Source: Arenicellales bacterium
GTDB lineage: Bacteria > Pseudomonadota > Gammaproteobacteria > Arenicellales > Poriferihabitantaceae
Assembly: GCA_963422685.1 (NCBI GenBank)
Contig: OY730442.1
Location: 1,991,847 to 2,055,846, forward strand
Direction: 5' to 3'
Length of the DNA: 64,000 bases
In this document: in pieces, positions 5,181 to 17,212 of the stretch
Layout: each line of letters begins with the position of its first letter
Position numbering within the stretch: position 1 is the stretch's first letter
Notes under the pieces: model-generated
What the model was told of the DNA's origin: nothing
The model's input: the letters and a program-made list of their open reading frames with translations, nothing else
Database searches by the model: none
Translations under genes and position numbers: made by a program

Positions 5181-5212
5181 GCGCAACCCTTGAAGGTCAT
5201 CGAAATACTGCC

Positions 5213-5347
5213 ATGAAACGTACATTTCAGCCCAGTGAAATCAAACGTAAAAGAACCCACGGTTTTCGCGCGAGAATGCGCACCCGTGGCGGGCGGGCGG
5301 TGATCAACGCCCGGCGTGCCAAAGGTCGTGCTCACCTGAGTGCTTAA
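5213..5347 (+). CDS. rpmH: 50S ribosomal protein L34
   Basis: It is absent from the ORF track because it is under 60 aa. My manual translation is [44 protein letters not shown], the canonical L34 sequence, directly upstream of rnpA. Confidence 0.95.
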
Positions 5348-5372
5348 AACAGCGTCTGAGACTGGCTGACCC

Positions 5373-5738
5373 ATGCCGCCAACCGCGGCACGCACAGGAC
5401 GCCAAAACAGGCTTCTGAACAGTACCCAGTTCAGCGCGGTTTTTAATAACAGAAAGTCGGTTCACGGCAAATTCTTCAGTTTCCACGTTGCACGAAATGC
5501 TTTTGATTACCCCCGTTTGGGATTGGCCGTGTCGCGCCGAGTCAGCAAAAAAGCAGTTCAGCGCAATCGGATCAAGCGGCAGATCAGAGCCTCTTTCAGG
5601 TTGTGTCCGGTGGATTTATCACATATCGATTTCGTAGTCTTGGCCAAGGCAGGCTGCGCGGATCAAATCAACCCGGTGCTGCGTGTTGAATTGGACAAGT
5701 TGTGGAACAGAGCGAGAGAAAAATGCGAAAACTGCTGA
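5373..5738 (+). CDS. rnpA: Ribonuclease P protein component
   Basis: This 121-aa basic protein (LGLAVSRRVSKKAVQRNRIKRQIR) sits in the conserved rpmH-rnpA-yidD-yidC order. Confidence 0.9.
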   Translation: MPPTAARTGRQNRLLNSTQFSAVFNNRKSVHGKFFSFHVARNAFDYPRLGLAVSRRVSKKAVQRNRIKRQIRASFRLCPVDLSHIDFVVLAKAGCADQINPVLRVELDKLWNRAREKCENC

Positions 5739-5953
5739 TTGGATTAATAAAGACGTATAAAGTGACGCTTAGTCCGTTTCTTGGGCAGAACTGCCGGTTC
5801 CAGCCGGGATGCGCCAGCTATGCCATGGAGGCTATAGAAAAACACGGGTCAATGCGCGGAAGCTGGCTGACACTCAAACGAATCGGTCGTTGCCACCCCT
5901 GGCATGAAGGTGGCTATGACCCGGTTCCGGATTGCAAACAAATGTTGCGGTGA
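5723..5953 (+). CDS. yidD: Membrane protein insertion efficiency factor YidD
   Basis: It carries the signature CRFQPGCASYAMEAIEKHG...RIGRCHPWHEGGYDPVP. I prefer the ATG at 5723 (MRKLLIGLIKTYK) over the GTG at 5702. It overlaps the end of rnpA, as is usual. Confidence 0.85.
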   Translation: MRKLLIGLIKTYKVTLSPFLGQNCRFQPGCASYAMEAIEKHGSMRGSWLTLKRIGRCHPWHEGGYDPVPDCKQMLR

Positions 5954-6046: not shown

Positions 6047-7744
6047 ATGCCCTTTCAACGAATAATGCTGCTGGTCGCGCTGGGTTTGGTGCTGGTGATG
6101 ATCTGGCAGTCCTGGGGAGAATTTCAGCACAACTACGCTCAACCCAATGCCGGCCAGGCCGGCCAAAGCCCTGCTGAAACGGATTCTGGCAATGCTGCGA
6201 GCAGCAATTTAAGTGAAGACGTGCCGGATGCGCCGGAGGTGCGCTCATCCGAAAATGACAACGCAGCGGATATTCAATCTGCAACCCGGACCGTGTCCAG
6301 CACGGGACAGATAATCAATATCTCGACCGATCTGATCAATGCACAAATAGATACTCAGGGCGGCGATCTTGTTCGCGTTGAATTAATCAGGCATCCGGTC
6401 AGCGTGGATGCGCCGCAGCAGCCGTTCGTTCTCATGCACCGCGATAATCCTGGATTATTTGTTGCCCAAAGCGGCCTGATCGGAAAGGGTCGTGACTACC
6501 CAAACCATAACGTCCTGTTTTCTGCTTCCAGGCTTGAATACCAACTGGGAGATTCTGAAAATCTCGATGTTACTTTAAGCTGGACTGCACAAGATGGGGT
6601 CGCCTACGAAAAAGTATTTCGCTTTAAGCGCGACAGCTATCGTATCGACGTGGATTTTCGCATCGTCAACCACAGCGGTCAGGACTGGGTTGGATTTGCT
6701 TACGGGCAATTAAAGCAAACCGAGATTGAGCAACCCGGGTCAATGGGGTTTCTGGGCAGGCTGCCGAGCTATAACGGCGCTGCGATTTATACACAGGAAG
6801 AAAAATACGAAAAGATTGATTATGGTGAAATCAGGGAAAGTGCCTTGAATGTGACCACCCCGGTCGGCTGGGTAGCCATGCTGCAGCATTATTTTGTGGC
6901 GGCCTGGCTGCCGACAGACTCCGATAACTATCAATTATATTCCGGCATAAGCCATAACACTGCAAAGCCGCAATATCGCATCGGATACAAAACCACCCAA
7001 CCGGTCACCATCCCAGCCGGATCAAGTGGAGAGATCCACACCGCGCTGTTTGTCGGCCCCAAGGAGCAGGTTCGGTTGGACCGGCAGAATGTGGAAGGTT
7101 TGAAGCTGACCGTTGACTATGGCTGGCTCACCCCCATTGCCAGTCCGCTGTTTTGGCTGCTGACCAAGATTCATGGGCTGGTGCAAAACTGGGGCTGGTC
7201 GATTATTCTGTTAACCGTTTTGGTCAAAGGTGTTTTTTACCCGCTGTCTGCAGCCAGCTACAAGTCCATGGCGAAGATGAAAAAGTTACAGCCCCGCATG
7301 GTTACGCTAAAGGAGCGTTATGCCGACGACAAGCCCAAATTTCAGCAGGAAATGATGAAGCTGTACAAGGCGGAAAAAGTAAACCCCGCGGGCGGTTGTT
7401 TGCCGGTTCTGGTGCAGATTCCGGTTTTTATCGCGTTGTACTGGGTGTTGTTGGAAAGTGTGGAATTACGACAGGCGGACTTTATGTTTTGGCTGAATGA
7501 TCTGTCTCTGCCCGACCCCTATTTTGTCCTGCCGGTTATTATGGGCGCATCCATGATCGCCCAGCATTTCCTCAATCCGGCGCCGGTTGATCCCCTTCAG
7601 AAGAAAATAATGATGGCATTGCCGTTTGTCTTTACCATTTTCTTCTTGTGGTTTCCCGCCGGGCTAGTGCTTTACTGGGTGGTAAATAACCTGCTTTCCA
7701 TCGCCCAGCAATACTATATCTCAAAAAAATACCAGGCCGCCTGA
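6047..7744 (+). CDS. yidC: Membrane protein insertase YidC
   Basis: The 565-aa protein has an N-terminal TM, a large periplasmic domain, and the conserved C-terminal 60-kDa-IMP core (WGWSIILLTVLVKGVFYPLS, GCLPVLVQIPVFIALYWVL). Confidence 0.95.
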   Translation: MPFQRIMLLVALGLVLVMIWQSWGEFQHNYAQPNAGQAGQSPAETDSGNAASSNLSEDVPDAPEVRSSENDNAADIQSATRTVSSTGQIINISTDLINAQIDTQGGDLVRVELIRHPVSVDAPQQPFVLMHRDNPGLFVAQSGLIGKGRDYPNHNVLFSASRLEYQLGDSENLDVTLSWTAQDGVAYEKVFRFKRDSYRIDVDFRIVNHSGQDWVGFAYGQLKQTEIEQPGSMGFLGRLPSYNGAAIYTQEEKYEKIDYGEIRESALNVTTPVGWVAMLQHYFVAAWLPTDSDNYQLYSGISHNTAKPQYRIGYKTTQPVTIPAGSSGEIHTALFVGPKEQVRLDRQNVEGLKLTVDYGWLTPIASPLFWLLTKIHGLVQNWGWSIILLTVLVKGVFYPLSAASYKSMAKMKKLQPRMVTLKERYADDKPKFQQEMMKLYKAEKVNPAGGCLPVLVQIPVFIALYWVLLESVELRQADFMFWLNDLSLPDPYFVLPVIMGASMIAQHFLNPAPVDPLQKKIMMALPFVFTIFFLWFPAGLVLYWVVNNLLSIAQQYYISKKYQAA

Positions 7745-7759
7745 GTCCATTTCTGACCA

Positions 7760-9112
7760 GTGGCAAATCCGCAAAGTCGGCGGCTCGACAATATCGTAGC
7801 GGTGGCGACGCCGCCAGGGAGGGGGGGCATCAGCATTGTCCGGCTATCCGGCCCGGATGTGCCGATGATCACGCAGGAATTTTTCGGTCAGCACCTGAAA
7901 CCAGGGTATGCGCATCATAGGGATTTCAGGGATAGCGATAATTCCATAATCGACAACGGCATAGCGCTGTTCTTTTCTGCGCCACACAGCTTCACCGGCG
8001 AACACGTTTTGGAATTACAGGGGCATGGTAGTCCAGTTGTTATGCAAATGCTGGTTCGACGCTGTTTGCAGTCAGGCGCCAGGTTGGCAAGGCCGGGCGA
8101 GTTTAGCGAGCGGGCATTTTTCAACGGGCGCCTGGACTTGACCCAGGCCGAAGCCGTAGCCGATTTAATCCAAAGCAGCACCGAATCTGCGGCACGTTCG
8201 GCAGTAAAATCTTTACAGGGTGGTTTCTCCGAAAGAGTGAACCAATTGGCCGCTGAAGTGATCCGTCTCAGAATTTTCGTTGAAGCGGCCATAGATTTCC
8301 CCGACGAAGAGATTGATTTTTTGCAGGACAGCAATGTGATTGCGCAGCTCGAAAAATTGGCCATGCGGTTTAAATCGCTCAAGGCGTTGGTGAAGCAGGG
8401 GAGGCTTTTGCGCGACGGCCTGAAAGTTGTATTGACCGGCTTACCCAACGCTGGCAAATCCAGCCTGCTCAATGCGCTTTCCGGCCAAGACCGGGCCATC
8501 GTCAGCACTGTTCCTGGAACCACTCGTGATGTGTTGGAGCAAATTATCGAAATTGATGGATTGCCCGTGGAAATTGTCGATACCGCCGGGATACGTGACA
8601 CCATCAGCGAAATTGAGGCAGAAGGCGTTCGGCGCGCCTTACAGGCGCAGCAACAGGCGGACCTCATTATCCTGGTGATTGATGATACCAGTGCCAGTGA
8701 AGATCAGATTGCGTCAATGCTGCATGATCAGGGCGGCGCCATCCCGGTGCTGCTCCTTAGAAACAAGATTGATTTGACCCATCGAACCGCAGTAAAGCGA
8801 GGAAATGAAATTTATGTTTCCGCTTTGACCGGTCAGGGATTGCCTTTAATCAGGGAAGAAATTAAGCAAATTGCCGGATTTCGACAGGTCGACGACAGCC
8901 AGTTTCTCGCCAGGGAGCGCCATGTGGATGCGTTATTGCGGGCAGAGCAATTTCTCAAAAATGGCCTGGAGCAGCAAACAAAATTCACAGCGGGAGAATT
9001 GTTGGCGGATGATTTGAGGTCTTGTCAAAACGTGCTGGGAGAAATAACCGGTGCGGTCAGTAGCGATGATTTGCTGGGGATGATATTCCGTTCATTCTGC
9101 ATTGGAAAATAG
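7760..9112 (+). CDS. mnmE: tRNA modification GTPase MnmE
   Basis: It has a GTG start, the motifs VATPPGRGGISIVRLSG and the G1 loop GLPNAGKSSLLNAL, and the C-terminal CIGK motif. Confidence 0.95.
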   Translation: MANPQSRRLDNIVAVATPPGRGGISIVRLSGPDVPMITQEFFGQHLKPGYAHHRDFRDSDNSIIDNGIALFFSAPHSFTGEHVLELQGHGSPVVMQMLVRRCLQSGARLARPGEFSERAFFNGRLDLTQAEAVADLIQSSTESAARSAVKSLQGGFSERVNQLAAEVIRLRIFVEAAIDFPDEEIDFLQDSNVIAQLEKLAMRFKSLKALVKQGRLLRDGLKVVLTGLPNAGKSSLLNALSGQDRAIVSTVPGTTRDVLEQIIEIDGLPVEIVDTAGIRDTISEIEAEGVRRALQAQQQADLIILVIDDTSASEDQIASMLHDQGGAIPVLLLRNKIDLTHRTAVKRGNEIYVSALTGQGLPLIREEIKQIAGFRQVDDSQFLARERHVDALLRAEQFLKNGLEQQTKFTAGELLADDLRSCQNVLGEITGAVSSDDLLGMIFRSFCIGK

Positions 9113-9236
9113 CAGAACCCTGTTCGTTATGTATAATTCACACGGACAATTCCACGGTATATATATCAATTGGATGCTGATAATATATGGCTTTAACAAT
9201 GAACAGGCCCGGCATTTCTCCCCTGCATAAATTGCT

Positions 9237-10292
9237 ATGACTACGACAAACCCCACCCACAACTACACCCGAAGTATCCTGCTGCAAATAATTTTGGTAA
9301 TAGCGCTGCTTGCCATTGTTACTCTCTGGCAATGGGATATCGTGCACCAGATATATGTTGCCAATCAGGTCAATACCGTTGGATGGGCAGTAAATGGTGG
9401 AATTGCGTTGCTGTTTGTCTGCGGTCTGATTCAGTTAGTAAAGCGATTTTTCGAGTATCGAAACCAGGAGCAGGCGATAAATCGATTCAAGGCCAATGTA
9501 AAAGATAACCGGGAACCCTTGCTCGGCATACGTCAGGATGACATGGTAGCGGAACGATTTCTGACCTTGAAGTCTTTGAATCGACGCCGTGCCAGTATTG
9601 ACCAAAGTGCCCTTGCCGCGACATTGCTGGCATCCGAATCAAGCAGAAATAGCTTCCTGAAATTTGTGCACAACGTTTTAATTCTCACTGGTGTATTTGG
9701 CACCATTATCTCGCTGTCTATTTCGTTGCTGGGTGCATCGGATATTCTGCAAAGCGGTGGGCAGGCCGGCAGTTTGCTGGGAGAACGGGAAGCCGCACAG
9801 GCGACCGGGCTGGGCACCATGATTTATGGGATGTCCACTGCCTTGTCTACCACGCTTACCGCAATCATCGCCTACCTGTTCTTTGGCTATTTCTACATAA
9901 AGCTGACCGACACCCAGACTTTTCTGATCAGTAAAATTGAAGAAGTGACTGCAACAACATTAATGCCGCATTTACAATTAAATCAGGATACAGTGATCAG
10001 GGATTATTCCGAAAGTATACGTGCAGCAAACGAGTTAATTCAGAAGCTGGAACAATCACAACAGAAGTATACAGATTCGGCAGGCATGCTGGAGTCAGCC
10101 ACGCAGAAACTGGCGGATAAAGTGACCTCCTGGCATGACAAACCCAATGTAAACGAGGAATTACTGGCGTTGATGAGCGAAGTTGTCGAACGGCATCAAC
10201 ACACTTCCCGGCAACATGCTGAAAGCATGGACAAGGTTGTCGGCTTGTTAAAACGAGGCTTCCGTTTGCGCAACGGAAACGACCAGACTTAA
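9237..10292 (+). CDS. MotA/ExbB/TolQ-like proton-channel family membrane protein with a roughly 125-aa helical C-terminal tail
   Basis: The 351-aa protein has four hydrophobic helices (about aa 14-31, 49-68, 143-166, 194-221). There is a roughly 75-aa loop between TM2 and TM3. The TM3/TM4 pair (LTGVFGTIISLSISLLG ... GLGTMIYGMSTALSTTLTAIIAYLFFGYF) resembles the MotA_ExbB channel core. Its stop TAA directly abuts the ATG of the MotB-like gene. Confidence 0.7.
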   Translation: MTTTNPTHNYTRSILLQIILVIALLAIVTLWQWDIVHQIYVANQVNTVGWAVNGGIALLFVCGLIQLVKRFFEYRNQEQAINRFKANVKDNREPLLGIRQDDMVAERFLTLKSLNRRRASIDQSALAATLLASESSRNSFLKFVHNVLILTGVFGTIISLSISLLGASDILQSGGQAGSLLGEREAAQATGLGTMIYGMSTALSTTLTAIIAYLFFGYFYIKLTDTQTFLISKIEEVTATTLMPHLQLNQDTVIRDYSESIRAANELIQKLEQSQQKYTDSAGMLESATQKLADKVTSWHDKPNVNEELLALMSEVVERHQHTSRQHAESMDKVVGLLKRGFRLRNGNDQT

Positions 10293-12173
10293 ATGCCGGG
10301 TTCCAACGGATTCATTGATCTTAGAGTCGGTCGCGGCGCTGGCGGCGTCGGCGATGACAGTATATGGCCGTCATTTACCGACATTATGACTGTGATCGTC
10401 ATGATTTTTCTAATGGCGCTGGTAGTAATTATGGTGCGCAATTTTGAGCTTGACCGAAAATTGTTGTCAACCATCACCGCCAAGGAAGCGACCACATTGG
10501 CAAATCAGGATCTGCTAACCCGGTTGTCAGGGGTGGAAGGTTTATTGGGGGAGACACAGCTTCAGCGGGATGCATTACAAGTTACCCTGGGCGAGGAACT
10601 GGAACGGCTGGCGGCATTGACAGCGGATCAGGAGGAGTTGCAGGGAGAGCTTGCGACCCTGGTTGCGAAGCGTCAGCAGCTGGAGCGGGACAATGCCCGG
10701 CTGCGGCAGCAGCAGCAGGATGCGTTGGCGGAGATTGGCAAGTTGACGGATAGCGAGCGTTCGTTGAATCAGCAGATTGCAGTATTGAGTGAGCAGTTGG
10801 CCACGCTGGAGATGGAATCCACCGAGACCATAGAGTCGCTCAGCACGGATAAGCGTTCGCTGAATGAAAAGCTGGATGCGGTGTTGGCCCGGTTGTCAGG
10901 GGTGGAAGGTTTATTGGGGGAGACACAGCTTCAGCGGGATGCATTACAAGTTACCCTGGGCGAGGAACTGGAACGGCTGGCGGCATTGACAGCGGATCAG
11001 GAGGAGTTGCAGGGAGAGCTTGCGACCCTGGTTGCGAAGCGTCAGCAGCTGGAGCGGGACAATGCCCGGCTGCGGCAGCAGCAGCAGGATGCGTTGGCGG
11101 AGATTGGCAAGTTGACGGATAGCGAGCGTTCGTTGAATCAGCAGATTGCAGTATTGAGTGAGCAGTTGGCCACGCTGGAGATGGAATCCACCGAGACCAT
11201 AGAGTCGCTCAGCACGGATAAGCGTTCGCTGAATGAAAAGCTGGATGCGGTGTTGGCCCGGTTGTCAGGGGTGGAAGGTTTATTGGGGGAGACACAGCTT
11301 CAGCGGGATGCATTACAAGTTACCCTGGGCGAGGAACTGGAACGGCTGGCGGCATTGACAGCGGATCAGGAGGAGTTGCAGGGAGAGCTTGCGACCCTGG
11401 TTGCGAAGCGTCAGCAGCTGGAGCGGGACAATGCCCGGCTGCGGCAGCAGCAGCAGGATGCGTTGGCGGAGATTGGCAAGTTGACGGATAGCGAGCGTTC
11501 GTTGAATCAGCAGATTGCAGTATTGAGTGAGCAGTTGGCCACGCTGGAGATGGAATCCACCGAGACCATAGAGTCGCTCAGCACGGATAAGCGTTCGCTG
11601 AATGAAAAGCTGGATGCGGTAGCAGGTCAGCTTGCGGAAGTAAAGATATTACTCCAGCAATCTCGAAGCGAAAATCAGTCGTTGACTGAGGAAGTCATTG
11701 AGTTGGGTGGATCGAAGCAGCAGGTTGAACAACGATACAGCATTGCCGGCGATGAAATTCTCGCCCTCAAGGAGCTGGTCCGGTTGCGCGAATCAGAAAA
11801 CGCTGCATTGCAGATTCAGGCACGATCGTCGGTAAATCAATACCGTTCGCTCAAGGACGAGTATGAATTGCTGGATACGAAATACCGCGAGTTAATCAGG
11901 CCGGCGAGAAGTACAGCGGGGAAGTATGTAGTCGAAGTCTGGGTGGAAAAGATCAATTCGAAAATAAGGTATAAATTGAAACAACCGGATGAAGATGTGC
12001 CGCAGGCGGTGCAAAAGTCTCAAATGGAGCAGAAATTACAGGAGTTGAAAGAACGCTTTGGAAGCAGGCTTTATACCAGAATCGTGATTCCGCAAACCAA
12101 CCAGCTATCCCACAATGAGGCCTGGAATTTTACTCAGGAGATTCTGCAGAAATACGATTATTACCACCAGTAA
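10293..12173 (+). CDS. MotB-like single-pass protein with a giant repeat-built coiled coil and a small C-terminal globular domain
   Basis: The N-terminus SIWPSFTDIMTVIVMIFLMALVVIMV matches the MotB plug/TM pattern (W..[FY].D.MT.[hydrophobic run]). The invariant-type Asp is at aa 30 (codon 10380-10382). Residues about 77-443 are three identical 123-aa Leu/Glu/Gln/Arg-rich repeats, and further coiled-coil-like sequence runs to about aa 520. The last roughly 105 aa look like a degenerate beta-alpha-beta OmpA-like fold (inference). Confidence 0.7.
   Translation: MPGSNGFIDLRVGRGAGGVGDDSIWPSFTDIMTVIVMIFLMALVVIMVRNFELDRKLLSTITAKEATTLANQDLLTRLSGVEGLLGETQLQRDALQVTLGEELERLAALTADQEELQGELATLVAKRQQLERDNARLRQQQQDALAEIGKLTDSERSLNQQIAVLSEQLATLEMESTETIESLSTDKRSLNEKLDAVLARLSGVEGLLGETQLQRDALQVTLGEELERLAALTADQEELQGELATLVAKRQQLERDNARLRQQQQDALAEIGKLTDSERSLNQQIAVLSEQLATLEMESTETIESLSTDKRSLNEKLDAVLARLSGVEGLLGETQLQRDALQVTLGEELERLAALTADQEELQGELATLVAKRQQLERDNARLRQQQQDALAEIGKLTDSERSLNQQIAVLSEQLATLEMESTETIESLSTDKRSLNEKLDAVAGQLAEVKILLQQSRSENQSLTEEVIELGGSKQQVEQRYSIAGDEILALKELVRLRESENAALQIQARSSVNQYRSLKDEYELLDTKYRELIRPARSTAGKYVVEVWVEKINSKIRYKLKQPDEDVPQAVQKSQMEQKLQELKERFGSRLYTRIVIPQTNQLSHNEAWNFTQEILQKYDYYHQ
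10519..11620. repeat. Three head-to-tail copies of a 369-bp repeat, nucleotide-identical by eye, inside the MotB-like gene
   Basis: The string cccggttgtcaggggtggaagg recurs at 10519, 10888 and 11257, a period of 369 bp or 123 codons. All lines I compared between copies are identical. Identity ends after ...gctggatgcggt at 11620. Confidence 0.95.
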
Positions 12174-12203
12174 ATTTATCGACAAATTATTGTCATTGAC
12201 CAG

Positions 12204-14084
12204 ATGAAATACTCCGATTCGTTCGATATCATCGTTATTGGCGGTGGTCATGCTGGCGTAGAAGCGGCGCTGGCCTGCGCACGGATGCAGTGTAAAACCC
12301 TGTTGGTCACCCATAATATCGAAACCATCGGTCAGATGTCCTGCAATCCGGCCATAGGCGGCATCGGCAAGGGGCACATTGTCAAAGAGATTGATGCCAT
12401 GGGCGGGGTCATGGCCTGCGCAATAGACGCTGCGGGTATCCATTTTCGGATTTTGAATGCCCGCAAAGGCGCGGCGGTTCAGGCCACCCGCGCCCAGGCT
12501 GATCGTGGGTTGTACAAAATGGCGGTCCGCAGCGCAGTGGAACACCAGCGAAACCTGGCTGTATTTCAACAATCTGTGGATGACCTGATTGTTGAGGGGG
12601 ATGTGGTCAAAGGCGTGCGCACCCAACTGGGCATTGAATTTGAATCTACGGCGGTGGTGTTGACAACCGGGACGTTTTTGAACGGAAAGATTCACGTTGG
12701 CATGGATCATTCCAAAGGAGGTCGGGCCGGGGATCCGCCTTCGCTTGCCCTGGCCGATCGATTGCGGCAGTTACCATTAAAAGTTGGCCGACTGAAAACC
12801 GGGACCCCGCCGCGTATTGATGGCAAGTCCATCGACTATACTGGTCTCGAACAGCAGCCGGGTGATGATCCGGTTCCCGTGTTTTCCTTTCTGGGGGATG
12901 CGTCCCGGCACCCAAAACAAATTCCCTGCCACATTACCCATACCAATCCCACAACCCATGAAATCATCAGCGGCGCTTTGGATCGTTCGCCGCTGTATGG
13001 CGGCGCCATTGACTCAGTGGGGCCGCGTTATTGCCCATCAATTGAAGACAAGGTGGTGCGATTCGCTGCACAAAGCAGCCATCAGATTTTTATTGAGCCG
13101 GAAGGCCTGAATACCACCGAAGTGTATCCCAATGGTATTTCAACAAGTTTACCATTTGATGTGCAACTGGATTTTCTGAGATCAATTAAAGGATTCGGGA
13201 ATGCGCTGATTACCCGACCTGGATATGCCATTGAATACGATTTTTTTGACCCGCGAGGATTAAAAAATTCATTGGAAACCAAATCTATCCAGGGATTGTT
13301 TTTCGCAGGACAAATAAATGGAACCACAGGCTATGAGGAAGCAGCCGGTCAGGGGTTAATCGCGGGTTTAAATGCGGCGTTGAAAATCCAACAGCGCGAG
13401 CCGTGGTGCCCGGCCAGAAACGAAGCCTATATAGGCGTGATGATCGATGATCTGGTTACCCATGGCACCGCAGAGCCGTATCGAATGTTCACCTCTCGCG
13501 CCGAGTATCGATTGCAGCTTCGAGAAGACAATGCCGATTTGAGATTGACCGCAAAGGGCCGCCAACTGGGTCTGGTTGGCGACCAGCGGATGGCGGTATT
13601 TGAGCGCAAACGCAGCGAGATAGAAAAGGAAAAGGCCCGATTGGAAAAAATCTGGATTCACCCGGATAAAACAGACACGGATTTGATTGAGAAAATGCTT
13701 GGTCAGGAATTGCAGCGCGAGGCCAGTTTGATGGACTTGCTGCGGCGTCCTGAAGTCACCTATCAGGATTTGGTGAAATTGGCCCAACTGGATTCCCCAC
13801 TGGAAAATCCGCAAAGTATTCGACAACTTGAAATTCAGGCCAGATACAGTGGATATATTGAACGCCAAATGGCCGAGGTCGAGCGGCAAAAGAAAAGTGA
13901 CGATGTGGTTTTGCCGGACAGCATGGACTATGGTTCGGTTCATGGTCTGTCTACAGAAGTACGGCAAAAATTCAGCCTGACACGTCCGCAAACCATAGGT
14001 CAGGCAACACGCATCCCCGGAGTGACGCCTGCGGCAATCTCGCTGCTGCTGGTTCATCTGAAGAAAATCCGGCGAGCGGCATAA
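12204..14084 (+). CDS. mnmG: tRNA uridine 5-carboxymethylaminomethyl modification enzyme MnmG (GidA)
   Basis: The 626-aa protein has the FAD motif [23 protein letters not shown] and [23 protein letters not shown], and looks like a full-length GidA-family protein. Confidence 0.95.
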
Positions 14085-14143
14085 CCATTATTTCGGGTTT
14101 GGAATAGACCGCACTGGAACTTTTGCCGGATAACGCCGCGGTT

Positions 14144-15496
14144 TCACCTCAGCGTGACCAGTTCCTCCGCAGCGGTGGGATGCACCGCCACCGTATTATC
14201 AAAATCCTGCTTGGTCGCACCCATTTTTATCGCCACTGCAAACCCCTGTATCATTTCATCAGCGCTGTCGCCAACAATGTGGCAGCCAACGATTTTTTCT
14301 GAGGCGCCGGCCGCGACCAGTTTGACCATGGTAAGTGACTTGTGCTCGCTCACGGCGTAGCGCATATTGATGAATTGGCTTTTGTAAATTTTAATCCGGG
14401 CGTCGCCGTATTGCTTCTTGGCATCGACTTCGGATAGTCCGATGGTGCCTGCTGGCGGGTGTGAAAATATCACGGTGGGGATGTTATTGTAGTCCAGTCT
14501 GGCCTCTGGTTCATGGTTGAATAATCGCCGGGAGAGTTTGCGTCCTGCCGCAATAGCAACTGGCGTGAGTTGCGCACCAGGAGTGACATCGCCCACGGCA
14601 TAAATACCACTGGCGGAAGTATTTTGAAATTCATCCGTATCAATCTGACCTCGATCGTTGGTTTTTACTCCGGTGACTTCCAGGTTCAGATGGGCAATAT
14701 TGGGGTATCGCCCGATGGCCCAGATAATACAATCGAAGCCGCCGGATTTATTACCGTCGCTGTCCGTATAGCCAAGACGGCCGTCAGAGTGCTTTAGCAG
14801 TGAATCCAGCGCGATATTTGTCATAATATTAATTCCGCTGTTTTGCATTTGCTGCATGACGAGCTCATGGATATCATGATCGAAACTTCTGAGCAGCCGG
14901 TCCTTTCTCAATAGCATGGAGACTTCGCTATTGAGCCCGTGCAACAGCCCGGCCAGTTCCGTTGCTATATAGCCGGCGCCAATAACCAGAACTCTCTTCG
15001 GTTGCGCTTTTAGCTGGAAAAACCCATTACTGGTAATGCCGAGGTTCGCACCGGCAATATCGGGAACGACTGGCTGCCCGCCGGTGGCAATGAGAATGTG
15101 ACCTGCCTGGTATGGGTCACCATTCACTTCGATGCAGTTTTTGGCGCGGAACCGGGCCACACCGCGCACCAGGGTGACGCCGGATTTTTCGAGGTTAGTC
15201 TGGTAAATTTTGTTTAAACGGGAAATATATCCATCACGTGATTGCTGGATGGTTGACCAGTTGAATCCCTGCCCTTGGATTTGCCAGCCATAGTCCTTTG
15301 CCAATGCCAGAGTTTCGTTAATTTGTGCGGTGAGCCACATCACTTTTTTTGGAACACAGCCCACATTGACGCAGGTTCCGCCGAGCGGCCCGGATTCAAC
15401 AATCAGAACCTTTGCACCATATTCTGCGGCGCGCCTGGCGGAGGCAATGCCGCCGCTTCCGCCGCCAATCACGATAAAATCGAATTTACTGATCAT
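14144..15496 (-). CDS. gor: Glutathione-disulfide reductase
   Basis: The 450-aa protein has FDFIVIGGGSGGIASARRAAEYGAKV, the redox-active GGTCVNVGCVPKK motif, and the C-terminal HPTAAEE dimer-interface His-Glu motif. Confidence 0.9.
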   Translation of the reverse strand: MISKFDFIVIGGGSGGIASARRAAEYGAKVLIVESGPLGGTCVNVGCVPKKVMWLTAQINETLALAKDYGWQIQGQGFNWSTIQQSRDGYISRLNKIYQTNLEKSGVTLVRGVARFRAKNCIEVNGDPYQAGHILIATGGQPVVPDIAGANLGITSNGFFQLKAQPKRVLVIGAGYIATELAGLLHGLNSEVSMLLRKDRLLRSFDHDIHELVMQQMQNSGINIMTNIALDSLLKHSDGRLGYTDSDGNKSGGFDCIIWAIGRYPNIAHLNLEVTGVKTNDRGQIDTDEFQNTSASGIYAVGDVTPGAQLTPVAIAAGRKLSRRLFNHEPEARLDYNNIPTVIFSHPPAGTIGLSEVDAKKQYGDARIKIYKSQFINMRYAVSEHKSLTMVKLVAAGASEKIVGCHIVGDSADEMIQGFAVAIKMGATKQDFDNTVAVHPTAAEELVTLR

Positions 15497-16096: not shown

Positions 16097-17212
16097 ATGG
16101 ACTCAAGAGCAGCGGTGGCCTATGAAGCAGGCAAACCTTTAGAAATTGAAACGGTTCAACTTGACGGCCCCAGGGCCGGTGAAGTACTGGTTGAAATAAA
16201 AGCCACGGGAATTTGTCATACCGATGAATTCACCCGGTCCGGCGCAGACCCGGAAGGGTTGTTTCCGGCGATTCTGGGCCATGAAGGCGCGGGTATTGTG
16301 GTTGAAGTTGGAGAGGATGTCCGCAGTGTAAAAAAAGGCGACCACGTCATTCCTTTATACACACCGGAATGTCGCCAGTGCGACTACTGTATCAGCGGCA
16401 AAACCAACCTGTGCCAGGCGATTCGGGTTACCCAGGGCCAGGGCGTAATGCCCGATGGAGCCAGTCGATTTTCCTTGGGCAGGCAAAAAATTTTCCATTA
16501 CATGGGCACTTCGACTTTTTCCAATTACACCGTGCTTCCAGAAATTGCAGTGGCAAGAATCCGTGAAGACGCACCATTCGACAAGGTATGTTATATCGGT
16601 TGTGGCGTAACCACCGGAATCGGCGCGGTAATCAATACGGCAAAAGTGAGGCCTGGCGATAACGTCGTGGTATTTGGTCTCGGCGGAATTGGTTTGAACG
16701 TGATTCAGGGTGCGAGATTGGCGGGTGCAGATAAAATTGTCGGTGTAGATATCAATCCCAAACGCCAGCGGCTCGCAGAAAAATTCGGCATGACGCACTT
16801 TATCAATCCGCAGCAGATTGAAGATGATCTGGTCGCCAGTATCGTTGACATCACCGGCGGCGGCGCGGACTACAGTTTTGAATGCGTCGGCAATACCGAC
16901 TTGATGCGCCAGGCATTGGAGTGCTGCCATAAAGGCTGGGGCGAAAGCGTCATTATTGGTGTTGCCGGTGCCGGGAAAGAAATCAGCACTCGCCCATTTC
17001 AACTGGTTACTGGCCGGGTTTGGCGTGGAACCGCCTTCGGTGGGGCGAGAGGAAGAACGGATGTGCCGAAAATTGTAGATTGGTATATGGAAGGGAAAAT
17101 AAATATTGATGATTTAATTACCCATACCATGCCACTGGACAAAATTAACCAGGCATTTGATTTGATGCACTCTGGCGATTCCATCCGCAGCGTGGTTTTA
17201 TTCGACTCCTAA
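16097..17212 (+). CDS. adhC: S-(hydroxymethyl)glutathione dehydrogenase / class III alcohol dehydrogenase
   Basis: The 371-aa protein has [32 protein letters not shown] and [15 protein letters not shown], plus the Zn-ADH fold motif GLGGIGL. This is the typical class III ADH N-terminus and length. Confidence 0.9.

Follow-up and report, generated by a model that had tools for sequence, protein, structure and literature searches.

The 64,000-nucleotide window analysed here (contig OY730442.1 of GenBank assembly GCA_963422685.1, positions 1,991,847 to 2,055,846 of the forward strand, from an Arenicellales bacterium; all positions below are those of the window unless a related locus is named) encodes two adjoining genes, referred to as A and B, which probably make up a membrane motor of the 5:2 type (A5B2) that is ion-driven and self-contained, and would represent a distinct, unnamed family nearest to ZorAB, in which the B dimer itself provides the periplasmic stalk. 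Motors of this type drive flagella and gliding, and supply the energy for nutrient import, outer-membrane maintenance and phage defence. The stop codon of A directly abuts the start codon of B (...ACT TAA ATG CCG...), and the pair is not a chance arrangement, as hundreds of conserved, full-length and syntenic orthologues exist. An earlier note on this DNA had described two abutting genes (TAA, then ATG) encoding a MotA/ExbB/TolQ-like protein with four transmembrane (TM) helices and a protein with a MotB-like, Asp-bearing N-terminus and a long extracytoplasmic coiled coil, with no known partner machinery nearby. Both open reading frames (ORFs) and their junction were confirmed, and the other points were borne out by the analyses below, the extracytoplasmic location of the coiled coil by homology.

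Subunit A is predicted to have the MotA/ExbB/TolQ fold, on the basis of structural comparison of a model and of profile matches among its orthologues. A family-based AlphaFold2 (AF2) model of A (predicted local distance difference test score, pLDDT, 68) contains helices at residues 9-31, 44-89, 139-175 and 184-246 and tail helices at residues 254-298 and 305-341. When the model was compared with the PDB using Foldseek, the top ~50 matches were nearly all chains of ExbB, TolQ, ZorA, PomA or MotA, with probabilities up to 1.00, target template-modelling (TM) scores of 0.5-0.6 and about 210-230 aligned columns, at modest E-values of at least 3e-3; ExbB and TolQ ranked best, MotA and PomA lower, and the longest aligned span was with ZorA (8qyh_A, 293 columns). 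In a direct Pfam scan, the MotA_ExbB family (PF01618) was matched by the window protein below threshold only (E=0.48; 10.6 bits versus a cut-off of 22.9), and by 10 of 27 orthologues at E<0.01 (best 1.4e-5); a precomputed PF01618 match is present on a few of the database orthologues. More than 1900 homologues of A were found, mostly annotated as 'hypothetical'. When PDB sequences were searched with a HMMER profile built from the complete A family, only designed helical proteins, aligned to the tail, were returned, and no motor protein. No curated model in the scanned copies of Pfam, NCBIfam and PADLOC scored above its threshold for A or B of the window, and curated-model matches among the orthologues comprise only weak MotA_ExbB matches in a minority of A proteins.

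The loops of A contain 0 (TM1-TM2), 14 (TM2-TM3) and 1 (TM3-TM4) Lys plus Arg residues; this pattern, together with the four modelled helices, suggests an N-in, MotA-like topology with four TM helices, a cytoplasmic TM2-TM3 domain of ~70 residues, and a cytoplasmic tail of two helices. In the alignment of 27 orthologues, the most conserved segments are the two membrane helices that bear GVFGT and GMSTALSTT; the invariant motifs are T-G152-V-F-G-T156 in TM3 and G198-M-S-T-A-L-S-T-T206...F-G-Y-F-Y-I-K-L in TM4. Further invariant residues lie in the region of the TM1-TM2 loop (W31, Q32, Y40, N43, Q44, N46) and at the end of the tail (G341-F-R343, followed by Leu in most orthologues). The tail comprises ~100 residues here, and is shorter in distant A relatives of ~310 residues. 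In TolQ, residue T145 is the polar-ring residue that faces the Asp of TolR, a role that is established for TolQ, ExbB and MotA, and polar Thr rings opposite the Asp of the B-type subunit are formed by T145/T178 in TolQ and T148/T181 in ExbB. The GVFGT156 motif of A was aligned to GLFGT145 of TolQ by hhalign (weakly, E=0.004) as well as by an ungapped scan. For a second Thr ring, which is plausible, the invariant ALSTT206 of A resembles ALIAT178 of TolQ; here, the ungapped scan left two registers almost equal (scores of 12 and 13), and a gapped local alignment of TM4 of A to TM3 of TolQ was mis-registered.

Subunit B is predicted, from alignments and profile matches, to carry a TM helix of the MotB/ZorB type with an invariant Asp. 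The segment reads WPSFTD30IMTVIVMIFLMALVVIMV, and Asp30 is invariant in all 28 aligned orthologues and is positioned near the N-terminal end of the helix, which is the cytoplasmic end by homology. Conservation extends over the first ~57 residues, which are almost invariant in the 28 orthologues (GFxDLR; D-D-S-V-W-P-S-F-T-D30-I-M-T; the membrane helix; R49-N50), and the residues R49, N50, L53 and L57 just past the helix are invariant. Since a profile of the whole B protein was swamped by myosin-like coiled coils when searched against the PDB, B was split into N-terminal and C-terminal sub-alignments. The N-terminal profile matched ZorB chains (8vvn_B, E=5.3e-5; 8vvi_A, 3.7e-3; 8qyd_F, 0.07), with Asp30 placed on the channel Asp of ZorB, and the PADLOC model for ZorB matched the N-terminus of the window protein at 6e-5 and relatives at up to 6.6e-8; all PADLOC matches of A and B to ZorA and ZorB are partial and confined to the TM core. 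An alignment of B to TolR by hhalign placed D23 of TolR on Asp30 (weak, E=0.008), and a single Pfam match to ExbD, located in the N-terminal helix, was obtained among the B orthologues. Residues 23-187 of B also align to positions 15-172 (of 350) of the NCBIfam model PRK09039 (NF006543; 'peptidoglycan-binding protein') at E=3e-15, a score of 56.8 bits that is far below the 305-bit cut-off and that leaves the C-terminus of B unmatched.

The membrane helix of B is followed by the predicted coiled-coil stalk. B contains no Pro between residues 27 and 536 and displays a 3.5-residue periodicity, and in its AF2 model the helix is continuous over residues 465-534. The stalk of the window protein includes the only array that was reported by Tandem Repeats Finder, which covers residues 76-444 with 100% matches and no indels. 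The earlier note had calculated that these ~370 repeat residues alone would span more than 50 nm; the repeat is indeed present, but close orthologues of B have mostly ~380 residues with one copy of the 123-residue unit, so that the three copies are best regarded as a recent, lineage-specific local expansion, and such a length is not the normal state. The unit was found in two copies at ~75% identity in three clusters. The identity of the three copies reflects a recent event or homogenisation; the array could also be an assembly artefact. If real, a perfect array of three 369-bp units could gain or lose copies by recombination, and thereby generate stalk-length variants within the population.

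Across 69 complete loci, the length of B ranges from 285 to 772 residues (median 464), and both ends are conserved. Independent internal duplications of high identity were observed in B orthologues with periods of 28, 56, 84, 91 and 231 residues, all of which are multiples of 7, and others with periods of 57 and 123 (7n+1 and 7n+4); weaker duplications have periods of 42 and 49, again multiples of 7, and of 32 and 39 (7n+4). As the periods are mostly heptad multiples, the stalk would be a continuous heptad coil that has been lengthened under selection for register, with only offsets of the skip or stutter type tolerated, a reading that follows from coiled-coil principles. At ~0.15 nm per residue, the shortest stalks (~135 residues) would measure ~20 nm, which could be just enough to span a periplasm. 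Extreme stalk length is not a property of the family; variability of the length is.

The same features, a long, Pro-free stalk whose length varies between lineages while the heptads are preserved, and a conserved head at its end, would also be expected if B were anchored in the inner membrane as a coiled-coil spacer or tether and served to set or sense the geometry of the envelope, with ion conduction secondary or vestigial; the length of Lpp, for instance, sets the width of the periplasm. This alternative is considered quite unlikely. D30 of B together with GVFGT and GMSTALSTT of A constitute the most conserved part of both proteins, which favours an active ion pathway over a relic, and A is always kept beside B.

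The head of B comprises its last ~90 residues, which follow the continuous helix and were modelled with high confidence by AF2 (pLDDT ~90), and it is conserved even in relatives at 33-41% identity. No significant match was obtained for the head by Foldseek against the PDB, by profile search of the PDB, or in Pfam. Its best geometric match was the periplasmic domain of Escherichia coli TolR (5by4; probability 0.77, target TM-score 0.53, root-mean-square deviation 3.2 Å, 85 columns, E=0.56), and hhalign of the C-terminus of B against TolR gave E=0.28. The head may hence be described as a family-specific domain that is possibly TolR-like, at best weakly. An OmpA-like anchor, as which the C-terminal ~105 residues had tentatively been interpreted in degenerate form, was considered and rejected: there was no match to PF00691 in B or in 19 C-terminal domains, and none to OmpA by Foldseek or by PDB profile search, and the confident model is of the alpha/beta type.

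A scan with one genome per species yielded 69 loci, for the most part from metagenome-assembled genomes (MAGs) of sponge-associated Gammaproteobacteria (Ca. Spongiihabitans, Ca. Poriferihabitaceae and Arenicellales); the closest database matches are 77% identical for A and ~60% identical for B. The gene order yidC-mnmE-A-B-mnmG is kept in ~45 loci, down to 48% identity of A, and ~8 Arenicellales loci have A-B-mnmG without mnmE as neighbour. Where identity falls to 33-41% (Zetaproteobacteria, Thiotrichaceae and other relatives), only A-B is retained. With a zetaproteobacterial A as the query, a second and large subfamily emerged in Mariprofundaceae, Sedimenticolaceae and Chromatiales, with A of ~310 residues, B of 290-356 residues, and overlapping stop and start codons. 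The earlier note had suggested a survey for co-occurrence of the pair, repeat number and a conserved third gene; A and B were found adjacent in 75 of 75 loci that carry the B motif, with B varying in length as described above, and an all-against-all comparison of the ORFs of 11 distant loci yielded only A, B and their shadow ORFs as common to all, hence no third gene. No known partner machinery adjoins the pair in ~80 related loci.

The genes next to the pair differ between lineages. One lineage has uvrB upstream of A-B, and ftsEX ~1 kb downstream, past a gene on the opposite strand; others have pyridoxal-phosphate enzymes as neighbours, MOFRL upstream and two Slp genes downstream, or DUF2007 upstream and PmbA/TldD downstream. 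Elsewhere, DUF455 lies upstream and CobW downstream of the pair, within a block resembling cysS-ppi-lpxH, and in a MAG of Ca. Porifericomitales (locus L076) the context is dnaX. The two Slp-family genes, which encode outer-membrane lipoproteins, were observed in one hydrothermal-vent lineage (L072, 10039-11108), where they follow A-B immediately and share its strand, and not in other lineages. In two Sedimenticolaceae loci (L074/L075), an OmpA-family gene was seen inside an ffh-rpsP-rimM-trmD-rplS block, and, in these loci only, fliS/fliT ~7.5 kb from A-B (13204-13938 and 16395-16933); with unrelated housekeeping genes in between, both are probably coincidental. The 3' part of the dnaX-like gene upstream of the pair in L076 (~5200-5860) contains tandem repeats of ~169 bp, with near-identical ORFs starting at 5201, 5376 and 5545.

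The position between mnmE and mnmG, to which the earlier note had drawn attention, was confirmed for the window as far as the flanks are concerned; it is lineage-specific synteny and gives no functional link. A coupling of A and B to tRNA modification by MnmE and MnmG could be read from the mnmE-A-B-mnmG order in ~45 genomes and from the gap of 30 bp between B and mnmG, which holds no terminator. We nevertheless regard it as extremely improbable, as A-B occurs without mnmE or mnmG in distant members of the family and without mnmE as neighbour in ~8 Arenicellales loci, and as a cytoplasmic reaction offers no plausible task to a motor that sits in the membrane and extends its stalk into the periplasm; the functional link was rejected on the ground that the distant loci place A-B in other housekeeping contexts. 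Since these contexts differ between lineages and only A and B are common to all, the pair is best described as a two-gene module that has been inherited vertically in lineage-specific housekeeping positions. By its distribution, A-B is a conserved core gene pair of sponge symbionts and of marine sulfur- and iron-oxidising bacteria.

A profile of A searched against 1.84 billion representative sequences gave 116 matches at E<=1e-30, 231 at E<=1e-10 and 584 at E<=1e-3; with only 584 matches at the last threshold, the family is discrete and does not merge into the mainstream of MotA/ExbB/TolQ proteins. The weak end of the list includes true ZorA proteins (P0502 and P0505; PADLOC ZorA3 down to 3e-17), and this outgroup, together with the ZorB matches of B, makes ZorAB the nearest characterised relative. 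Locus L076 (6001-9410) encodes a genuine member of the A family (P0418, 669 residues) with a repeat-bearing helical tail of ~370 residues, i.e. of ZorA-like architecture, and a B partner of 439 residues with the same FWPSFTD...YDYYYQ ends, which implies that elongation within this family can affect A as well as B. The view that the architecture is inverted relative to Zorya, with the long coiled coil on B rather than on A, therefore holds for the window pair but not for every family member.

The pair might accordingly be a minimal Zorya-like sensor of phage attack or of envelope integrity, in which a ZorAB-type motor detects a perturbation via the B stalk and signals via the A tail to an effector that is encoded elsewhere. 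Such a sensor would fit with ZorA and ZorB as nearest characterised relatives and true ZorA as first outgroup of the A profile, and with the ZorA-like long A tail in L076, and the fast, repeated changes of stalk length could reflect an arms race. This main rival is judged unlikely, however, given that ZorC/D/E/F/G or any other conserved neighbour are absent in ~80 loci, that B has no peptidoglycan-binding domain of the ZorB type, and that the PADLOC models for ZorA matched the family poorly: the window A reached E=0.01, and at E<0.01 the best model (PDLC00635) was matched, weakly, by just two of 27 orthologues and the second (PDLC00636, ZorA2) by one (E=0.009). The strict, order-wide synteny and the lineage-specific housekeeping positions are also unlike patchy defence islands, and by gene order the pair behaves as a vertically inherited housekeeping module and not as a mobile defence island.

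A motor for surface or gliding motility, in the manner of GldLM/PorLM or AglRQS, would use the B dimer as a driveshaft that rotates in the periplasm; the architecture would be analogous, with a small ring of A and a dimer of B that extends far into the periplasm. We rate this as very improbable: GldL and GldM gave no sequence or fold match beyond a chance-level match to the tail (E=0.69), gld, por and agl genes are absent nearby in the window and in the distant loci, and the hosts, sponge symbionts and chemolithotrophs, have no known link to gliding.

For a self-contained A5B2 motor, the preferred interpretation, the following mechanism is proposed. Five A subunits would surround the two B helices, as in the solved structures of MotAB, ExbBD, TolQR and ZorAB, and ions passing Asp30 and the Thr/Gly ring would drive rotation of A relative to B. 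Beyond the membrane, both B chains would run in parallel as a dimeric coiled coil that reaches into the periplasm, so that B would act as a TolR with a built-in TolA-like arm, or as a GldM-like shaft, and no adaptor of the TolA/TonB type would be involved. The C-terminal head would engage a target in the envelope, either peptidoglycan or an outer-membrane component, and the GFR(L) motif of the A tail and the N-terminal GFxDLR motif of B might serve in regulation or in coupling of the motor on the inside.

Several points weigh against this interpretation. The A5B2 stoichiometry, ion conduction and rotation would all follow from homology, as would the topology of B (N-in, C-out), for which flanking charges are not decisive. 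The window A falls below the Pfam MotA_ExbB threshold (E=0.48), the confidence of its model is only moderate, hhalign matches to single TolQ (E=0.004) and TolR (E=0.008) sequences are weak, and the head of B has no recognisable binding function. Finally, stalks of 70-100 nm (B of 626-772 residues) cannot stand upright in an ordinary periplasm; a tilted or bent course, or one along the membrane, is required.

More tentatively, and with appreciable doubt, the family might represent a previously unrecognised class of housekeeping 5:2 motor, sister to Zorya, whose long B-dimer shaft is retuned by heptad-preserving duplications and conveys the proton-motive force to the outer envelope without an adaptor; it could even be the cellular ancestor of Zorya, and thus point to a cellular origin of the Zorya motor. 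If A and B are a working motor, they would represent a third route for motor output across the periplasm, beside a separate TolA/TonB arm and the domain chain of GldM. The lengths of B from 285 to 772 residues would also provide a natural series for relating stalk length to envelope geometry, and the pair is of possible relevance to the envelope biology of sponge symbionts and of marine sulfur and iron oxidisers.

The features of the pair and of its flanks are summarised in Table 1. In a promoter and terminator scan of positions 7500-14500, no site exceeded the expectation from shuffled sequence; co-transcription of B and mnmG is possible, as judged from their short gap without a terminator-like site. 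The remaining genes of the window comprise an integrase fragment, genes for an H+-translocating pyrophosphatase and a phosphofructokinase, rnpA/yidD/yidC, genes for a disulfide reductase and an alcohol dehydrogenase, a ribosomal block from elongation factor G through SecY, and genes for MFS, FtsJ, FtsH, GlmM, QueA, Tgt, GlyA, Ada, LysS, a LolC/E-like protein, Lon, HAD, an ABC transporter and SurE. Among the scanned ORFs of the window (all but a few small ones and those at 60.7-63.7 kb), genes of flagellar, Ton, Tol or gliding systems and genes for Zorya effectors were not found, and neither was a second copy of A or B nor a TolQ/R/A paralogue. The integrase fragment, at the start of the window, is a 185-residue ORF (110-667, + strand) with a match to Phage_integrase (E=3.6e-48), and apparently represents the C-terminal catalytic part only. 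The cumulative GC skew rises monotonically over positions 1-64000, and from rnpA onward nearly all large genes are on the + strand; both observations are consistent with a leading-strand position near the replication origin, the origin itself being outside the window. The gene dnaA is not located beside rnpA, upstream of which are the genes for the phosphofructokinase and the H+-translocating pyrophosphatase.

Table 1. Features of the A/B locus and of its flanks in the window
Feature	Position	Strand	Basis and remarks
mnmE	7760..9112	+	context gene; conserved upstream neighbour of A within the Arenicellales clade
Spacer between mnmE and gene A	9113..9236	+	124 bp, AT-rich; possible promoter region, candidate only
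Gene A	9237..10292	+	ORF of 351 residues, four TM helices; predicted fold of an ion-driven motor A subunit (MotA/ExbB/TolQ/ZorA)
A, TM1 (residues 9-31), short periplasmic loop and TM2 (residues 44-66)	9261..9434	+	predicted from AF2 helices, alignment and loop charges
A, channel core: TM3, periplasmic loop and TM4	9666..9899	+	predicted from invariant alignment columns
A, cytoplasmic tail, two long helices (residues 254-298 and 305-341)	9996..10289	+	predicted from AF2 and alignment
Gene B	10293..12173	+	ORF of 626 residues, MotB/ZorB-like; predicted N-terminal transpore helix, long coiled coil and C-terminal alpha/beta domain
B, cytoplasmic N-terminal motif G-F-I-D-L-R (residues 6-11)	10308..10325	+	F7, D9, L10 and R11 invariant
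B, TM helix W25-PSFTD30-IMTV...V48	10365..10436	+	Asp30 codon at 10380-10382; invariant in alignments
B, coiled-coil stalk (residues 49 to ~534)	10437..11894	+	predicted periplasmic; generic coiled-coil matches
Tandem repeat in the B stalk, 369 bp x 3.0 (123 residues x 3), in frame	10519..11620	+	Tandem Repeats Finder
B, linker (RPARS.AGK) and compact beta-beta-beta-alpha-beta-alpha domain, ending YDYYHQ	11895..12170	+	predicted by AF2
mnmG	12204..14084	+	context gene; starts 30 bp past the stop codon of B

Among the known systems, Zorya (ZorA/ZorB of types I-III; PDB 8QYD, 8VVN and 8VVI) shares with the pair the N-terminal Asp helix of B, which aligns to ZorB, the fold of A, which matches ZorA, and a helical cytoplasmic tail on A. 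The tail has ~100 residues here versus hundreds in ZorA; in place of the peptidoglycan-binding domain of ZorB, B carries a new head on a long coiled coil; and the A/B loci are in a conserved housekeeping position without ZorC/D/E/F/G, and not in a defence island.

TolQR and ExbBD share the GxxGT motif of A and the Asp-bearing transpore helix of B, and provide the best structural matches of A. The head of B superposes best on the periplasmic domain of TolR, albeit without statistical significance, and B would functionally resemble a TolR fused to a TolA-like helical arm. Unlike TolQ and ExbB with three TM helices, A is predicted to have four; no TolA/TonB, Pal or TolB is found near A/B in the window and in the related loci, and the stalk is part of B, and not a third protein at the periphery of the pentamer.

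With MotAB/PomAB, the pair has in common the four TM helices of A, an N-terminus of B of the type W-x-x-[FY]-x-D-x-M-T, and the order of the genes, with A first and its stop codon abutting or overlapping the start codon of B. It differs by the lack of an OmpA-like domain and of flagellar genes in the window, and whereas MotA has a large, torque-generating cytoplasmic domain, A has only the TM2-TM3 segment of ~70 residues.

GldLM/PorLM resemble the pair in concept, as the B-type subunit is a long, periplasm-spanning dimer that carries the output of the motor, but no homology of GldLM to A/B was detected. GldL has two TM helices, and GldM consists of globular domains in a chain, not of a coiled coil.

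A precedent for a MotB-like Asp helix that is extended otherwise than by the classical short linker is given by PRK09039 (NF006543) and by the TPH-vWA proteins (TPH, transpore helix), although B contains no vWA domain. A study of 2025 proposes that TPH proteins, including TPH-vWA, which bear novel domains in the periplasm, are accommodated directly within TolQ-like pentamers, and concludes that further 5:2 motors await discovery (PMC12204202). The premise of the earlier note, that the genes of known 5:2 motors lie next to those of the machinery they power, was too strong; tonB, for instance, is reported to co-occur only infrequently with exbBD (PMC12204202). A survey published in 2025 divides the relatives of MotAB into flagellar and 'generic' ion transporters, many of the latter being of unknown function and with diverse appendages (PMC12505986). 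The word 'coiled' is absent from the main texts of both papers (PMC12505986 and PMC12204202). Among such motors, the A/B family would be a clean case that comprises two genes, is inherited vertically and has an output module of an unusual kind, that is, a coiled-coil stalk within B and a new head.

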